Positions 3,282 to 64,000 of a DNA stretch of 64,000 nucleotides are shown in pieces. The notes beneath the pieces are model-generated. The model did not search any database. It was not told the DNA's origin and was given only the letters and a program-made list of their open reading frames with translations. The DNA lies in assembly GCA_963709405.1 (NCBI GenBank), contig CAVPXM010000060.1, forward strand, positions 1-64,000, written 5' to 3'. The first letter of the stretch is position 1; each line of letters opens with the position of its first letter. This stretch comes from an uncultured Nitrososphaerales archaeon. Lineage in GTDB: Archaea; Thermoproteota; Nitrososphaeria; Nitrososphaerales; Nitrososphaeraceae. The position numbers were made by a program, and so were the translations under genes.

Positions 3282-4079
3282 AAGACATTCAATTGCTATC
3301 TGAGACTTTTATTGTCTTCGATAAAGATAACACTGACAGTAATTTGGCCATTGTCGATCCTACGGTGAGTTTTAAGCATCCATCTTAGATCAATTTATCG
3401 TATTATTTGTTTCTTGTGTCCACATAACTATTTAACAGATCATGAATTCCATCTATTGAAAAAAGCATAGAACACTGCTACAAATATAGAGAGTGAAAGA
3501 GAAAATAAAATGTCTATATTCGCTATACGTAGCGGAGTTTGCCAGTATTTTTGTCGATGACATTGATTATTAAAAGATAGCATTAACAATTAAAAGGATT
3601 ACGAAGCTCTACAATACGTTGAGTAATTTAGACAGAGAACTATATCGGATTTCTGACAAATCCCGCATAATTCTATCTGAAAAAGTATCTTCTATTACGA
3701 TATGGAGCATATCAGATTATAAATATTTTCGAAAATAAGACATCGGATGTATAGGATGACGACTCGGTATTCTTAGACAGTGATGATAAAGGTTCATGTA
3801 CATGTCTATCATGGGGGCGCGCCAAACAATGTGTTGTTCCTATAGATAAGAAATCTTCAGGGATTTGATGAATTTTAGCTCGTAATCGTGAGGCCGCTTA
3901 AGCAGGATCACCCCCACTTCTCAAACCAACTTGTAAACTTGTAGATCTCTTACTGTTCCAACTCTTGGATACTATAAGTAGTCGCGCTCAACTCTGGCGC
4001 GAAGTTGAACTTCGGAATCCAACTAGCTTTTTTTCAAGTGAAGAACAAGGTTCAGGGATCAATATACGAATTTGGTAAC

Positions 4080-4762: not shown

Positions 4763-5197
4763 GTCGTTCCCCAGTGGATGAGGTCAGTCGCATCTTAGTC
4801 TCAAATAGTTGCTAGTCCAAATAATATTGAGTCTGTATACCTTTAATGCAATAAGGTAGTGCCAAAGCCCCAACAATTCCAATTTTCAGGTTATAATCGC
4901 TAAAGCTAGAATTTGCCATACACGAGAGTATTCAGCGACTTTAGTGACAATACCAAGAAACATCTTATTGAAGGGTCCAATCAGGTCAAGAATCAGAATT
5001 GTGAACTCAATTCTAGGTTATGTTTTCGTCAAGCAAATAATTGCACTTGATATGATTAGACAAAGTGAGCTTACTAGAAATTAATATTTGCCTGATCAAT
5101 CATGCTTTGGGATTTCTTGCTTAGTCGGAGCTTGCTGTTGTTCAGAAAAAAATGTATACCACATTGGCAAAGCACTAAAAAATATGCCCGTAGGCCT

Positions 5198-6449: not shown

Positions 6450-6850
6450 TCGTTTCTTTCACTCGGTACAGATATCATAGATGGGTCTGATGTAACCGGA
6501 CTAGTCGCCACTATTGGTCGTACTGGTATCTGATTGGTCTCATTGGCCGAACTATCAGTATTGTCATTCGCTTGCAAATTTCCATTATTAGAGCCGTCTG
6601 TATTAGAGTCAGTAATTTTAGCATTATCATTATTTTTCGCATTATCGTGATTGGAAGACTTTGTGTATAGATTAAAAGAATTTGGACTATTGTAGGATAT
6701 TGTAGACCGTACTAAGAGAGCTACCGTAGCTATCAAAAAGTAACTTCCAATAACAGGTCTCCTAGTGTTCAAATAAAACATACTTGAAAAAAAAGATATG
6801 AACACAACCAGGGCCCTGAACTTAGATTCTAGATTATTTGAGATAGGCAT
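6446..6850 (-). CDS. hypothetical membrane/exported protein with N/D-rich tail
   Basis: Hydrophobic N-terminus, low-complexity tail; stop overlaps the MCO start (ATGA), so probably co-transcribed. Confidence 0.5.
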   Translation of the reverse strand: MPISNNLESKFRALVVFISFFSSMFYLNTRRPVIGSYFLIATVALLVRSTISYNSPNSFNLYTKSSNHDNAKNNDNAKITDSNTDGSNNGNLQANDNTDSSANETNQIPVRPIVATSPVTSDPSMISVPSERNE

Positions 6851-6874
6851 TGAAACTTAGGCTTTAAAGTTTTT

Positions 6875-6902
6875 TCTCACTATATAAACTACACCTGTGA
6901 GA
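6875..6902 (-). promoter_or_regulatory. TATA box bracketed by inverted repeat TCTCAC-N16-GTGAGA
   Basis: TTTATATA (minus strand) at 6881-6888, ~30 bp upstream of ATG 6850, with 6-bp inverted arms on either side. Confidence 0.4.
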
Positions 6903-7132
6903 CATCGTCATACGTTGTTAGACAATCTTAGTTGTTAAATTCAAATTATTAATTATCTTAGCTATACATACGACGTCTTAGAATCTCTTATTACATATTT
7001 TTAGTACTTATCATGAGATAGTTTTTTCCCTTAAAAGGATACAGGATTTGCGGGTGGAGGATTCTTTGGCATAAATTATCAGAACTTTCTTATGTATTTC
7101 TATTATAGTTTGATTCGATTTTGAACTTCCTG

Positions 7133-7478
7133 TATTTCCAGCAAAATTCAAACTTGAATTCGCATTGTAAAGGAGACTGACTATCTTTAGAACACTGGAC
7201 GTAGGCCAGGTTCAATTCAATACTTTACATATAGCAATTAATAAACCAGAAGTATTAGAATTGCAATTCATCTGGAAAATGCAAACGCCCCGGAGCTTGC
7301 CCATTCAGATGTTAATCGCGATTGACTAACAGTTATGTTGTATATTCCGTGTCCACTAGGAGTTATTAAAAACGGGCGGGTGGTTGTCTCGATCATGTTG
7401 GTAATTTTCCCATTGCCATTTTTTAGATATATTATGAGCTCCACAAGGTTAGTACCTAGTAGAGCCTTCATTATTCAC
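7133..7478. repeat. direct repeat copy 2 (contains ~120-130 bp absent from copy 1)
   Basis: Matches 4080-4306; encodes the same peptide TNLVELIIYLKN..MIETTTRPFLITPSGHGIYNITVSQSRLTSE. Confidence 0.9.
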
Positions 7479-8838
7479 CGTGCCTGAACAATTCAAGATT
7501 TCCATCTCTTTAACGCACTTATGATCTACAACTCTTAGGAAAGATTCGTTATCAGCAGCAGCAGGAGCAGCACAACGGCCAGGTCAATAACATGTCCCTG
7601 AGGCAGGGAGTCAATACAAAAGATCACTCCAATTACTAGTAATAGTATTATCATGGTCTTGAGCATGATTAGGCATACATCTCAGATAACTGAATTTATG
7701 CGATCCTTAATAAGCTAACGACCCCTTTTTGGTTGAATCGATTTTTTGTTAGCGATGTGAATCCTCAGCAGCTGTTTGAATAAACGCCTTTTAGATTCCA
7801 GAACTGAAAAAGTTTCAAAACTGGATGACAATAATGGCAGCTTTCCCGGTTTCAAGTTCAGCACGAGCCTTTTTTTCGAGAAATAATGATAACGGTTCGA
7901 CTAATCTCTCTATCTAACAAATTTATTGGAACGACATGCATTAATAAATTTGTAAGCATGGTACTTTTTGTTACGTATTGATATGTGATCCAACTATTAA
8001 ATGTCGGCAATAGTCGAGGTGTGACGCGTTAAACTTAAGTATTGCAAGCTGTGTTGACGAAAATAGCTGCCAGCTTGGGGCATATTGAGACCTAGCAAGA
8101 GTTGGATTCTGAGTGTTTGCAGCAGGGCCTCGATACATAGCCCATTCATGTACATAACGAAGATTTCAAACAACTGTCTTATTCTTTAGCGTGAGATACA
8201 AGTGACTTGTCCTACTCATAAACAAAATTCTTCACTTTCATGTGTAACTCTTCGCTTAGTAAAATTGCTGACTTTTGTCGTTTGTTGCATAATCTGATGA
8301 TAGCTTGTATAAAAATATATTATCGATTATGATTGAAAGCTGTTGTCGCCCTGGTGACTTTGCAATAGATATATGTATAACTATATAGGTATATGACTAT
8401 ATATCAATAAATAAAGTGTTTGAAGGCATTATTTATAGGTAGATTCTATAACTCCTCTTACTAATTTGGCATTATTTGTACCTTGTTACCAAAATTAGGA
8501 TCCGCTCCTAGAAAGCGGATGGTCTGCGTTTGAGACAATTATATAGGAATTTTTTGATTGTATACCTCTCTTAAGTCCAAAATAATCTGGATCCGCATTG
8601 CAATAGTACGATTGAATCTTTAGTCTCGGGTCATATATTCCAAGAACTTTCAGATACTCAGATAGGTTACAATTTAGATTGCTCACACCGGATAAACTCT
8701 GCCGCTTGCTTCCTCCATACATATTGGGGCTTTATAGAAAGATATGCCATATGGTAATGCAATTACTCCATAGATGTTTCCATAATTTCGTTTTATGTTT
8801 TAACGAAATGTAACGCATAATTCATTATGTTATAAGTA

Positions 8839-9118
8839 TTACTTAATTGCCAGTTTAACATCAATATTATATTTCTCAAATGCTTGGTATGTCTTTAACC
8901 AAAGGTTTCCTGTAGATTCACAGACTGCTGTGGATTTAACACCACCATGCTTCCTCTTAATGGATGAAGCAAAGGATTCAGCTTGTTCCAACGTATTATT
9001 GTAATTAGTTTCTTCTGATTATAGAACCATTCGAATCCATTATACAAACTACACAATTCCGTTTTCCAATATCTACTCCTATATAGTTCAGCAATCCTTT
9101 CTTTTTCCTATTTGGTAT
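8839..9118 (-). mobile_element. IS110-family transposase/recombinase N-terminal remnant (DEDD domain), truncated
   Basis: Manual translation YIGVDIGKRNCVVCIMDSNGSII/EETNYNNTLEQ..AVCESTGNLWLKTYQAFEKYNIDVKLA matches the GxDxxK and E-x-T-G motifs; GGAGGTGA SD at 9128-9135. Confidence 0.85.
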
Positions 9119-9144
9119 CCTCTTTTCTCACCTCCTCTCTCTTT

Positions 9145-9340
9145 TTTCAGTATGGATAGCTGGATTAAGCTCCATACATCTATCAGAGCTCAAGGCTCAC
9201 TTTGACAGGCAGCTTGTAGGTACGCCCCATTCAACAGACTAGACCTATGTGGTCATGCATGATAAGGGGTCAGCTAACCATATTGTTATAGAAGGCGACT
9301 TTTACATGTCTTTCAACAGAGCAGACTTTCGCTAGAGCGG
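9145..9340 (-). ncRNA. candidate IS110 bridge RNA / structured left non-coding end
   Basis: ORF-free region directly upstream of the IS110 ORF with several stem-loops and a large internal loop. Confidence 0.45.
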
Positions 9341-9394
9341 CATATCTATAAGTATTCTTTAGAAGGTATTACAAGAAGTAGGTTATGTAGATAT

Positions 9395-9802
9395 ATGACG
9401 ATCAGCAATCAACTCAAAAAAAAGAAGGCAAACGAAGGTGTTATAATAATATCCACGTTTCCAAACCGCAGCATACTTTCTAGCGCTTCAACGAGGTTAA
9501 TTCTAGATAAGCACCTGTGTGCATGTATAAACGTCATTAAAGTCAACTCTCATTATCTTTGGAAAGGCAAATTAGAAAATCATGATGAATACCTTGCGCT
9601 ATTCAAGTCAACACGTAAAAATGTACCTGCTCTTAAAGATGAAATAAAAAAGATTCATCCGTATGAAGTTCCCGAAATTGTAGAATTGAAGACGAATAAA
9701 TTCTCTAAATCATATCTCTCTTGGTTAAATAGCACGACATCAAGGACAGCACAAGTGCCATCCAAGAAGATAATCTCAAAACAACCTTTAGTAAAAAAAT
9801 AA
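9395..9802 (+). CDS. cutA: divalent-cation tolerance protein CutA
   Basis: LCACIN, SHYLWKGKLE, HPYEVPEI motifs. Confidence 0.92.
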   Translation: MTISNQLKKKKANEGVIIISTFPNRSILSSASTRLILDKHLCACINVIKVNSHYLWKGKLENHDEYLALFKSTRKNVPALKDEIKKIHPYEVPEIVELKTNKFSKSYLSWLNSTTSRTAQVPSKKIISKQPLVKK

Positions 9803-9915: not shown

Positions 9916-11026
9916 CTAAGATAACTGATATCTTAACAGAGCTATTATTCCACCTAGCGAGGACACCCGTAGGCCCATGTCAGTTGACGTATCTACAGCA
10001 TATGTATTTGCACCGTATCCTTCGACTCTATTTAATAACTGTATTATCACATCTTCATCAGCGCTTGAATAGATGGAATCAGAATATGCGAGACTTTCGA
10101 TAGCTCCAACAGAGGCAGCGTGTGATACTTCTTTTATGCCCATAGCATATTTCGTTATACCCTTTTGCACCTGCCGCATTATTTCATCTATGATTTTTGA
10201 AACGGCAACAATTTTACTTGTACTCATAACATCCTTGGCTGAATCTGAGCGAAGAAACACTAAAATTCCATCTTCGCCAGCAACATCTACTCCATTTACA
10301 ATCGATAATCTTTCGCTCTCAAATGCTGGCTTGTCTGTAGGGAGGAAATTATAAAGTTTACGTTTCGTTTCTCCGGGACCAAATATAAGTATTTTTGCTT
10401 CAATCCCTCTGCTAATGTTATTATCACTATGCGCTACATCAAGAGACCTAATAGTTCTAGCAATATCATCTAGAAACGTCTCTTGGCTACCTTGTATAGA
10501 GTGTTGTTGATATCGCTTCCCGCTATAACCAGAGTATATATTCTGAACGATATTGAGATGCGTCCCAGAAAGCTTGGCAACTGTCTGCTTCACGATTATC
10601 AATGGCTACAAGTATAAAACTTGCTCCCATACTACCAAGAGATCTCTTAAAGATAGCAAGTTCTGACGCTTGCCACTCTCTTCCCTTATCAATGGTTATC
10701 GATTCACCTATCTGAATCGTAAGTGAATGATGTGCTCCTCTAGGAACTAGATCGTTATCAGTGTTTGTAATTACGCCGGATATCCGCAACCTATCAACAA
10801 GGCTGTCAAGGCTGACCTTTTCAACTTTGAGAGCGACTCTGATTTTGACCCTGTCACCTTTGTCAGGTCTTGAATATTCCTTTGCTTGTTTTATGACTCT
10901 ACTCGTATTAGCTATGACGTGATCATCTTTCTCGATAATCCTTCGTATTGTGAAGAGATCGTCGGCATCCTCGGGTAGTGCAAAATAAGCCTTTTCAGAA
11001 GATCCTTTGACATCCTTAATGATCAT
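9916..11026 (-). CDS. pelA: mRNA surveillance protein pelota (frameshift ~10590-10600)
   Basis: PEDADDLF, RLRISG, HHSL in the N-part; GPGETK, YAMG, SLGGIIALLRY in the C-part. Confidence 0.9.
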
Positions 11027-63236: not shown

Positions 63237-64000
63237 GGCTCTGTAGAAACCATGTTTTGAATACCGTTAGAGCTTTCTAGACGTATGATCCAATATGGAT
63301 GTTGAAAGAATCAAGATATGTTAGGCTGGCAAATACTATGTACCGTGTTTTGAAAAATTCAAGGATACCATTGTTTCTTCACAGGAAGAGCAACCATATC
63401 TTTACGATGTGGCAGCATCTAGTATTGCTTACAATAAGACAGTACGAAGGTAAGAAAGAGTTATAGAATGTTTGTTGAGTGGTTAATTGAAGCGTATTAC
63501 TTAAGAATCTTTCTACGATTATCACGTATACCTCATTTTACAACATTGCAGAAATTTACAGAAAGAATTAACAATGCATTGCTCGAAAGGATAATTTCGT
63601 CATTCATTGTAATTAGCGGTACCAAGCATATCTTTGTAGGAATAGATTCGACAGGATTCAAGAAAGATAACTCATGCTTCACAGTATTGTACTGATCGAA
63701 CAGGATTAGAAAGAAGAAAATATGCGAAATTATCTATTGGAGCCGATGTATTACTACAAATCATATGTACTATTAAGATAAGACGAGCTCCAACAAGACA
63801 TGATAATATAGATTTCAAGCCAATCAGTAATAAGGACGTCAAATATCCTTCCATTATCTGTAGTTACAGCTGATAAGGGATATGATAGTGAAGATAATCA
63901 TCTTTTGGTAAGAGAAGACTTATGCGTTCAGTGTAATCCCAGCTCGATATGAGCACGTACCAATATGGAGAACACATGGCAAATACAGAAAGCAGATGAA
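63237..64000 (+). mobile_element. IS5-like DDE transposase element (frameshifted, runs off window end)
   Basis: Putative end GGCTCTGTAGAAAC at 63237; ORF from ~63299; IPHFTTLQKF, GIDSTGF, TADKGYDSE motifs. Confidence 0.85.

Follow-up and report, generated by a model that had tools for sequence, protein, structure and literature searches.

The closest described relatives of the element reported here belong to two groups of RNA-guided insertion sequences. In IS621, a member of the IS110 group, a bridge RNA is encoded upstream of the recombinase in a long left end, the right end is short, and the RNA folds into two stem-loops with internal loops, loop 1 binding the target and loop 2 the donor (Durrant 2024, PMC11208160; Hiraizumi et al., 2024, PMC11208158). 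The seekRNA elements of the IS1111 group (ISEc11 and its relatives) likewise possess a DEDD transposase and a structured RNA derived from a long non-coding region, which, according to Siddiquee et al. (2024, PMC11187229), is almost always located downstream of the transposase, with exceptions such as ISMtsp17; subterminal repeats of 11–13 bp are usual in this group, and beyond them the left end extends for 7 bp and the right end for 3 bp. That archaea possess IS110 elements is already known, since 662 archaeal recombinases from several clades have been catalogued (Vaysset et al., 2024, bioRxiv 10.1101/2024.06.21.599552). In the part of that study covered here, which deals with proteins and phylogeny, neither Thaumarchaeota nor any Nitroso- taxon occurs, and the guides of archaeal bridge RNAs are not described. 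A full-text literature search likewise returned no published description of such guides for thaumarchaeal or archaeal IS110 elements, though supplements might list them. Here, we analyze a 64,000-nt stretch of DNA from an uncultured Nitrososphaerales archaeon (GenBank assembly GCA_963709405.1, contig CAVPXM010000060.1, positions 1 to 64,000; hereafter, the window), in which positions 8847–9315 of the minus strand very probably represent a decayed RNA-guided insertion sequence of the IS110 family of soil ammonia-oxidizing archaea, with a leader that is a predicted bridge/seek RNA gene.

The remnant itself (8847–9313, minus strand, as delimited by blastn against relatives) corresponds to the 5′ quarter of an element of the IS110 family. 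It comprises a non-coding left end of about 205 nt followed by a transposase stub at 8848–9109, whose borders come from two reading frames and from a comparison with locus L014, the closest DNA relative of the window copy (92% identity). Frame A (9109–9017; translation ...KKKGLLNYIGVDIGKRNCVVCIMDSNGSII) and frame B (9015–8848; translation EETNYNNTLEQAESFASSIKRKHGGVKSTAVCESTGNLWLKTYQAFEKYNIDVKLA) together make up the first ~88 residues of an IS110-family transposase, the last residues being ...VKLA. The frame A piece matches the Pfam domain DEDD_Tnp_IS110 with E = 3e-4 and 21 bits, below the 29-bit cutoff, and the stub covers just the first 23 profile positions of PF01548. The frame B piece (59 aa) matched 61 proteins at E ≤ 1e-3 among 67 candidates and is 93% identical, also by tblastn, to P0003, a full-length IS110-family protein of 358 aa. 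Together, the Pfam match and this identity bear out the original prediction, made from the sequence of the window alone, of a DEDD-type IS110 N-terminus on the minus strand, and the stretch of some 205–230 nt without an open reading frame (ORF) upstream of it is present as described.

P0003 contains both domains of the family, PF01548 in the N-terminal part (6e-30) and PF02371 (Transposase_20) in the C-terminal part (5.6e-23). It scores 251.8 bits against the NCBIfam model NF033542 (“IS110 family RNA-guided transposase”; cutoff 140) and can be aligned to the IS621 transposase 8wt6 with E = 5.9e-9. The motifs conserved between the two proteins, IGVD/IGID, CESTG/IEATG, KTDKLDAR/KTDTVDAR, and HQSGNS/YESGSS, hold the D, E, D..D, and S positions, i.e., the catalytic aspartates, glutamate, and C-terminal serine whose roles are described by Hiraizumi (2024, PMC11208158). 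The window stub retains only the first D and the E. Compared with L014, it has AGG at 9109–9107 in place of the ATG start codon and a 1-nt insertion at about 9015–9016 (ATCA[G]AAGAA); furthermore, it is truncated at codon ~88, everything 3′ of 8847 being gone, namely, some 270 codons together with the right end and its flank. Blastn homology ends at 8847–8849 in 14 of the 14 loci whose alignment reaches the 3′ side. No further transposase pieces, right-end motif, or second RNA copy were found in the 64-kb window by blastn, tblastn, the right-end motif, or the RNA model R1 described below. The window copy is a dead relic, unable to move by itself, and for the window genome the element is ordinary genomic debris.

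A profile search of genome contigs with an alignment of ten full-length proteins (A1) yielded 19 loci, mostly from Nitrososphaerales, Nitrososphaeraceae, Ca. Nitrosopolaris, and Nitrosopumilus bins. Where relatives from the Nitrososphaerales and Nitrosopumilus bins are intact, they carry a window-like leader upstream of a transposase of 330–370 aa. Homology to the window leader extends to at least 9246 in 11 of the 19 loci, and to 9323/9324 in L008 and L013, i.e., intact homologous elements do include this region. The comparison of copies within and between genomes gives an intact element of ~1.45 kb with the following layout: TG; a left end of ~260 nt, containing an 11-bp repeat and a structured RNA of ~135 nt; the DEDD/Ser recombinase; a right end of ~120 nt; and TG. 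The left end begins directly after TG in all 14 insertions, while the right end terminates in ...ACATAGA followed by TG in eight of ten copies and by AG in the other two (L003 and L006). The 11-bp subterminal inverted repeat, ATGTAAAAGTC on the left and GACTTTTACAT on the right, is separated from the left core by 5 nt and from the right core by 3 nt, so that the ends read TG-AATAC-ATGTAAAAGTC ... GACTTTTACAT-AGA(-TG) in the six group A copies (L001, L002, L003, L005, L006, and L007); a longer subterminal repeat is found in the Nitrosopumilus copies (L010, L011, and L018). In every copy, the 3′ end of the RNA is 17–100 nt upstream of the transposase gene.

Projected onto the window (all on the minus strand), these boundaries place the core dinucleotide TG of the left junction at 9314–9315, the left copy of the subterminal repeat at 9297–9307 (its partner being present only in intact relatives), and the left target flank TCTGT, adjoining the insertion point and equal to the 5-nt guide on the 3′ side of loop 1, at 9316–9320. 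With the left end starting at 9313 and the codon equivalent to the start at 9109, the non-coding left end is about 205 nt long, and the element does not end next to its ORF. TG was chosen as the core because it agrees with the left and right junctions as well as with the Nitrosopumilus copies and the empty sites described below. Another candidate, GC/GT or a variable dinucleotide before TGTTGAA, was dropped, as it does not recur at the right junction.

Loop segments were taken from fixed positions of the model alignment, and junctions were located by short end motifs; L015 was excluded from the loop–flank counts because it duplicates the L006 insertion, and L016 lacks a left junction. The 3′ side of loop 1 (TAG-TCTGT-TG-AA-T, 9229–9241) holds the predicted left-flank guide, the core, and a 2-nt handshake. 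Nine of its nucleotides, which stop one base short of the outer helix, are identical to 5 nt of the left flank, TG, and the first 2 nt of the element. This accounts for an observation of the original prediction, namely, that the 9-mer TCTGTTGAA occurs at both 9230–9238 and 9312–9320, within an imperfect 15-bp repeat (13/15 identities), and for the proposal built on it that the loop records its junction sequence. In the window, the guide and the junction are identical (9/9), and the rule holds in 14/14 insertions with at least seven of nine matches, L009 having 7/9 and the other 12 relatives 8/9 or 9/9. The location of the 9-mer is the 3′ side of the target-binding loop, not the donor loop. Left-flank positions are matched in 66 of 70 cases over the 14 insertions, compared to 40.1 ± 4.6 in permutations, none of 100,000 reaching the observed value; for nine closely related copies, the corresponding figures are 43/45 and 37.2 (196/100,000).

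It is scarcely credible, in the light of these counts, that the 9-mer repeat and the stems arose by chance in AT-rich, non-coding DNA next to a pseudogene. Exact direct repeats of at least 9 nt do occur in 222 of 2000 dinucleotide shuffles of the leader, and the fold of the leader has a z-score of just −1.0. Hence, the window alone is weak evidence and the significance comes from the relatives: one positional rule is obeyed in all 14 insertions, whose sequences differ, and the structure covaries.

The 5′ side of loop 1 (TTATCATGCAT, 9255–9265) follows a second rule, established on the 10 relatives with right junctions: it is the reverse complement of TG and 7 nt of the right flank. Right-flank positions are matched in 52 of 70 cases (27.1 ± 4.9 in permutations; again 0/100,000), and in 30 of 42 for the six group A copies (23.5 in permutations; 513/100,000). 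The covariation of loop sequences with insertion-site flanks, suggested as a check in the original prediction, is thus observed on both sides of the insertion. In the window, the right junction is deleted, and the 5′ side of loop 1 (TATCATG-CA), if read by homology, predicts CATGATA as the lost right flank.

Copies L010 and L011 are 91% identical and have unrelated flanks, and the differences between their loops are exactly those between the flanks (ACTTC vs. ACATA and GTCTTCC vs. GTATAAC). The 14-mer encoded by the L010 loop, ACTTC-TG-GGAAGAC, has five uninterrupted occurrences in the 6-kb Nitrosopumilus locus (1071–1084, 2222–2235, 3921–3934, 4814–4827, and 4917–4930), where they form the arms of a palindromic repeat of ~130 nt. 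These are empty target sites with a single TG each. Among the group A copies, an IS5-like DDE transposon (DDE_Tnp_1_5, DDE_Tnp_1) is situated directly to the right of the insertions L002, L005, and L007 (3738–4637 in L007), and a reversed copy of it is present in L001 (5267–6022). The far end of this transposon in L007 (4676–4689, minus strand) carries an uninterrupted TCTGT-TG-CGCAACT, with two mismatches.

Loop 2 was compared with the ends of the element. Its 3′ side (TG-ATAGA-TG-TA-T, 9174–9185) is the sense of the last 5 nt of the right end and TG; in the 10 relatives, this side agrees with the right-end terminus and the TG core at 66 of 70 positions. The 5′ side (CTGTCAAAGT, 9199–9208), compared with the first bases of the left end, yields 54 of 98 matches overall. 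Its complementarity reaches 6/7 (7/7 with wobble pairs) in Nitrosopumilus and 4/7 (6/7 with wobble pairs) in group A. When anchored on the subterminal repeat, the 5′ side in the window lineage has a TGTC that can pair with the GACA preceding the left repeat copy (4/5).

The predicted bridge/seek RNA core (9151–9284, minus strand; covariance model R1) consists of a closing helix H0, formed by TATGGTTAGCTG (9282–9271) and CAGCTATCCATA (9162–9151), which encloses two stem-loops, in each of which a large internal loop separates an outer from an inner helix. The first of these, the stem-loop CCCC[..GACC acata GGTC..]GGGG with its large internal loop, had been proposed originally and is real and conserved. 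In stem-loop 2, the outer pairing is AGCTGC (9214–9209)/GGAGCT (9173–9168) and the inner one GAGC (9198–9195)/GCTC (9189–9186). The latter is conserved as originally drawn, without its suggested extension by CTGTCA/TGATAG, which falls into the sides of the internal loop; the two sides of this second internal loop are CTGTCAAAGT and TGATAGATGTAT. Like this extension, the TAAC/GTTA and TATGGAGCT/AGCTATCCATA pairings of the original fold are not conserved and represent alternatives specific to the window.

The leader alignments (A4 and A5) comprise 15 leaders. In the MAFFT alignment, which was not fitted to the structure, 87.6% of 403 cells pair, as opposed to 28.9–49.6% with the partner slid; nine pairs are changed on both sides, and none of 500 shuffles reaches either the paired percentage or the covariation score. 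In the R1-fitted alignment, which leans towards the structure, the paired fraction is 91.6% (slid, 29.2–47.6%), with 14 pairs changed on both sides and again 0/500 shuffles. RNAalifold, applied to the model-fitted alignment A6, returns the same five helices with 26 pairs. Compensatory changes are seen in all five helices, e.g., CCCC/GGGG is replaced by CCTC/GAGG in L009 and by CCGC/GCGG in L010, L011, and L018, GACC/GGTC by GCGC/GCGC, and GAGC/GCTC by GCAC/GTGC, while the sequence of H0 differs completely between lineages. In the model-fitted alignment, 18 G–U cells would be A–C on the opposite strand, which fits transcription in the transposase sense.

Model R1 has a single match in the window, at 9151–9284 (115.4 bits, E = 6.7e-37 with 64 kb searched). 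The window RNA gene is structurally intact except for one G–G mismatch in helix H3, and its 136-nt core folds at z = −2.5 (3/200 shuffles). The model also found one copy outside its training set (L018:15–137, minus strand, 51 bits). This is a second, diverged bridge-RNA copy, which no search other than the model revealed, with its transposase beyond the edge of the locus; its loop and left junction have TCTGT-TG in common with the window copy.

A different explanation of the leader is that it is only a 5′ untranslated region, a promoter, or a protein-binding DNA end, the loop–flank identities being inherited DNA repeats with no guide role. The RNA is indeed deduced from DNA, the invariant donor-loop motif TGATAGATG might be bound by a protein, and loop 1 is not hypervariable. 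Such an origin is nevertheless very unlikely: five helices are kept by compensatory changes in elements whose recombinases are only ~41–49% identical to P0003 (L009–L011 and L018), the 18 G–U cells would be mismatched on the other strand, the matched flank bases lie outside the element and track the loop between the near-identical L010 and L011, and the empty sites equal the loop-encoded 14-mer.

Several observations speak against a guide function of the leader or limit it. The right junctions of L003 and L006 read AG instead of TG. The 3′ side of loop 2 is nearly invariant, and hence its identity with the right end comes without covariation, while the 5′ side scores 0/7 in the core-anchored register in the window lineage. 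The columns of loop 1 are no more variable than the rest of the RNA (8/24 vs. 41/133, p = 0.49), and two nucleotides of this loop upstream of the 5-nt guide vary with no partner found. Flank positions −6 to −9 (CTGC) are conserved without matching a guide, so that a part of the target choice is unexplained. Taken as a single sequence, the 254-nt window leader does not fold significantly (z = −1.0; 30/200 shuffles). It also has no matching Rfam 15 family, as a scan of 8300–9800 with E-values up to 10 produced only two matches to microRNA models (E = 3.8 and 8.6), far below gathering. The sample contains about 14 independent insertions from four to five lineages, all but the haloarchaeal plasmids coming from metagenome bins, and the permutation tests over all lineages are inflated by shared descent, those within groups being weaker (p about 0.002–0.005). 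Finally, the RNA itself is deduced from DNA. With these points taken into account, the comparative data still support the interpretation of the leader as a putative thaumarchaeal bridge RNA gene.

The original prediction likened this RNA to that of IS621, and the comparison is valid in part. As in IS621, the left end encodes the RNA, which thus precedes the recombinase, and a repeated genomic element serves as the target; the guide lengths of the two sides also agree, the 5′ side having 7+2 nt and the 3′ side 5+2 nt with a handshake of 2 nt. The comparison fails for the strand order and the ends. An RNA of the IS621 type would have 5′ loop sides that are the sense of the left flank or the right end and 3′ sides antisense to the right flank or the left end; in IS621 itself, the 3′ side is antisense to the core and the right flank or left end (4–7 nt), followed by the 2-nt handshake (PMC11208160). 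The upstream RNA, the long left end, and the short right end do agree with the IS110 group (Durrant 2024, PMC11208160). However, this register scores just 1–4/9 on the 5′ side and 0–2/9 on the 3′ side in 10 elements, the strand order is the opposite one in the sequences of IS621 itself (Supplementary Table 1 of PMC11208160), and the archaeal elements possess the 11-bp subterminal repeat, a feature that is lacking or only 2–3 bp long in the IS110 group. Incorrect element boundaries are argued against by the L010 empty sites. An IS621-type assignment is therefore extremely improbable. Compared with IS621, the strand assignment in the archaeal clade is mirrored relative to the element ends, the core is TG rather than CT, a long subterminal repeat is present, H0 encloses both stem-loops, and the protein similarity of the recombinase is remote.

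Judged by its ends and loop register, the clade reads as IS1111/seekRNA-like rather than IS621-like. Its 11-bp repeat is extended by 7 bp on the left (TG+AATAC) and by 3 bp on the right (AGA), as in IS1111; within the loop, complementarity to the top strand comes first and that to the bottom strand second; and copies with different guides match different flanks, resembling natural re-programming. One archaeal lineage inserts at the end of another transposon, and IS4321 and IS5075 reportedly target the inverted repeats of the Tn21 family. The differences from IS1111 are the location of the RNA upstream of the transposase, the right end of only ~120 nt, and the hosts, which here are Nitrososphaerales and Nitrosopumilales archaea. 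Thus, the archaeal clade agrees with IS1111 in three criteria and departs from it in a fourth, because its RNA is upstream.

These relations suggest a mechanism for the intact elements. The 5′ side of loop 1 would pair with TG and 7 nt of the right flank on the top strand, and the 3′ side with the 5-nt left flank and TG on the bottom strand, the next 2 nt matching the first bases of the element. Stem-loop 2 would be the donor-binding one, its 3′ side matching the right-end terminus with TG and its 5′ side being complementary to the left-end terminus. Excision of the element may, by homology to IS621 and ISEc11, yield a circle that joins the right end, TG, and the left end (RE-TG-LE). The recombinase–RNA complex would then bind the RE-TG-LE junction via loop 2 and a matching target via loop 1, and strand exchange between the circularized element and the target would probably occur at TG. 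The window copy landed at ...TCTGT|TG and later lost its start codon, gained the frameshift, and lost its 3′ three-quarters. As predicted from the sequence, the guide RNA gene of this dead stub still spells out its own landing site.

The preservation of the RNA raises the question of whether the orphan gene might still be used in trans with the recombinase of intact copies, e.g., at TCTGT-TG-CATGATA sites. We consider this unlikely, if less so than the alternatives discussed above. With 115 bits, the RNA core has a score comparable to those of L013 and L016 (110–111 bits), two other fragmentary copies of the same lineage, all its helices are intact apart from the single mismatch in H3, and seekRNA has been reported to work in trans (Siddiquee et al., 2024, PMC11187229). 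On the other hand, the window contains neither an intact copy nor a second copy of the RNA; the loop-predicted target TCTGTTGCATGATA has 11 matches at three mismatches in the window, which is the chance level (9.6 expected); and the left-end donor site is kept while the right end is gone. Moreover, similar stubs are common among the relatives, L004, L012, L013, L014, L016, and L019 being truncated or frameshifted (the stub in L014 breaks off at codon ~108), and this argues for plain decay; the clade decays often in these genomes.

Two further explanations concerning the remnant were rejected. A bridge-RNA-mediated origin of the truncation at 8847 finds no TG or guide-like match there, and hence a plain deletion is assumed. 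L014 is not an orthologous locus of the window, since homology between the two is restricted to the element. As a separate observation, a direct repeat with 13/15 identities, TATAAGTATTACTTA/TATAAGTATTCTTTA (10 nt exact), brackets the remnant at 8831–8845 and 9347–9361, one copy abutting the truncation (8846/8847) and the other being 32 nt outside the left junction. An exact match of at least 10 nt between both flanks of the remnant occurs in six of 2000 shuffles, the flank windows having been chosen post hoc. The repeat may be the trace of an insertion in which the fragment carried its old flank along, or it could represent arms of a repeated target.

Between the RNA and the transposase, Nitrososphaerales copies have invariant columns, GGAGGTGA within AAAGGAGGTGA (9128–9135 in the window, minus strand). 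The motif AAAGGAGGTGA is invariant in all 11 Nitrososphaerales leaders (alignment A2) and is localized 17–60 nt upstream of the likely transposase start, too distant for the usual Shine–Dalgarno spacing; it is absent from the Nitrosopumilus copies. Three loci, L008, L017, and L019, are near-identical archaeal-type element fragments whose bins bear the labels Gemmatimonadales, Woesearchaeota, and Terriglobia. Short contigs have probably been mis-binned here, and transfer is a possible reason as well.

More distant relatives on haloarchaeal plasmids, with 38% protein identity, have the same upstream RNA layout when read by eye. Loop–junction identities can also be recognized by eye, e.g., GTCTAAA-CA vs. 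...CATAGG-TG-TTTAGAC in L020. Model R1 performs weakly on the haloarchaeal and Rhizobium relatives (12 bits with E = 0.016 for L020, 6.4 bits for L021, and no sensible match for L022). A tblastn search against plasmids gave many enterobacterial matches, below 60% identity.

The remnant fills only the right fifth of a 2.5-kb stretch (6850–9395) devoid of ORFs of 110 aa or more, the rest of which is AT-rich; the neighbors of this stretch are cutA and a short ORF downstream of a multicopper-oxidase gene. Nearby, at 9916–11026 of the minus strand, a Pelota/aRF1-like gene is split into overlapping ORFs, with eRF1 domain 1 in 10523–11026 and domain 3 in 9916–10602; the split reflects a frameshifted pseudogene or else an error in sequencing. 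At the end of the window, positions 63306–64000 are 74% identical to 5031–5722 of L002 over ~700 bp. This stretch is presumably a conserved host gene, and it fits the Nitrososphaerales origin of the window.

Taken more broadly, and as a tentative proposal that we consider possible rather than probable, ammonia-oxidizing archaea (and, by eye, haloarchaeal plasmids too) may host a distinct architectural class of bridge recombinases, which would combine IS1111-type ends and strand order with an upstream RNA and a closing helix. Their guides would be re-programmed between paralogs in one genome, their targets would be palindromic repeats and transposon ends, and the window RNA would be one of many solo guide genes able to act in trans.

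At the sequence level, these results extend RNA-guided (bridge/seek RNA) transposition to Nitrososphaerales and Nitrosopumilales, with element boundaries, a TG core, guide rules, and empty sites. Even from a stub that is dead and unannotated, the site of its insertion can be read off. The compact archaeal recombinase/RNA pairs, of about 340–370 aa and about 135 nt, respectively, are offered for testing. The clade mixes the traits that separate IS110 from IS1111, as its RNA is upstream, yet its subterminal repeats are long and its strand order is that of IS1111, and this mixed architecture may be useful for tracing how the RNA moved between element ends in evolution.

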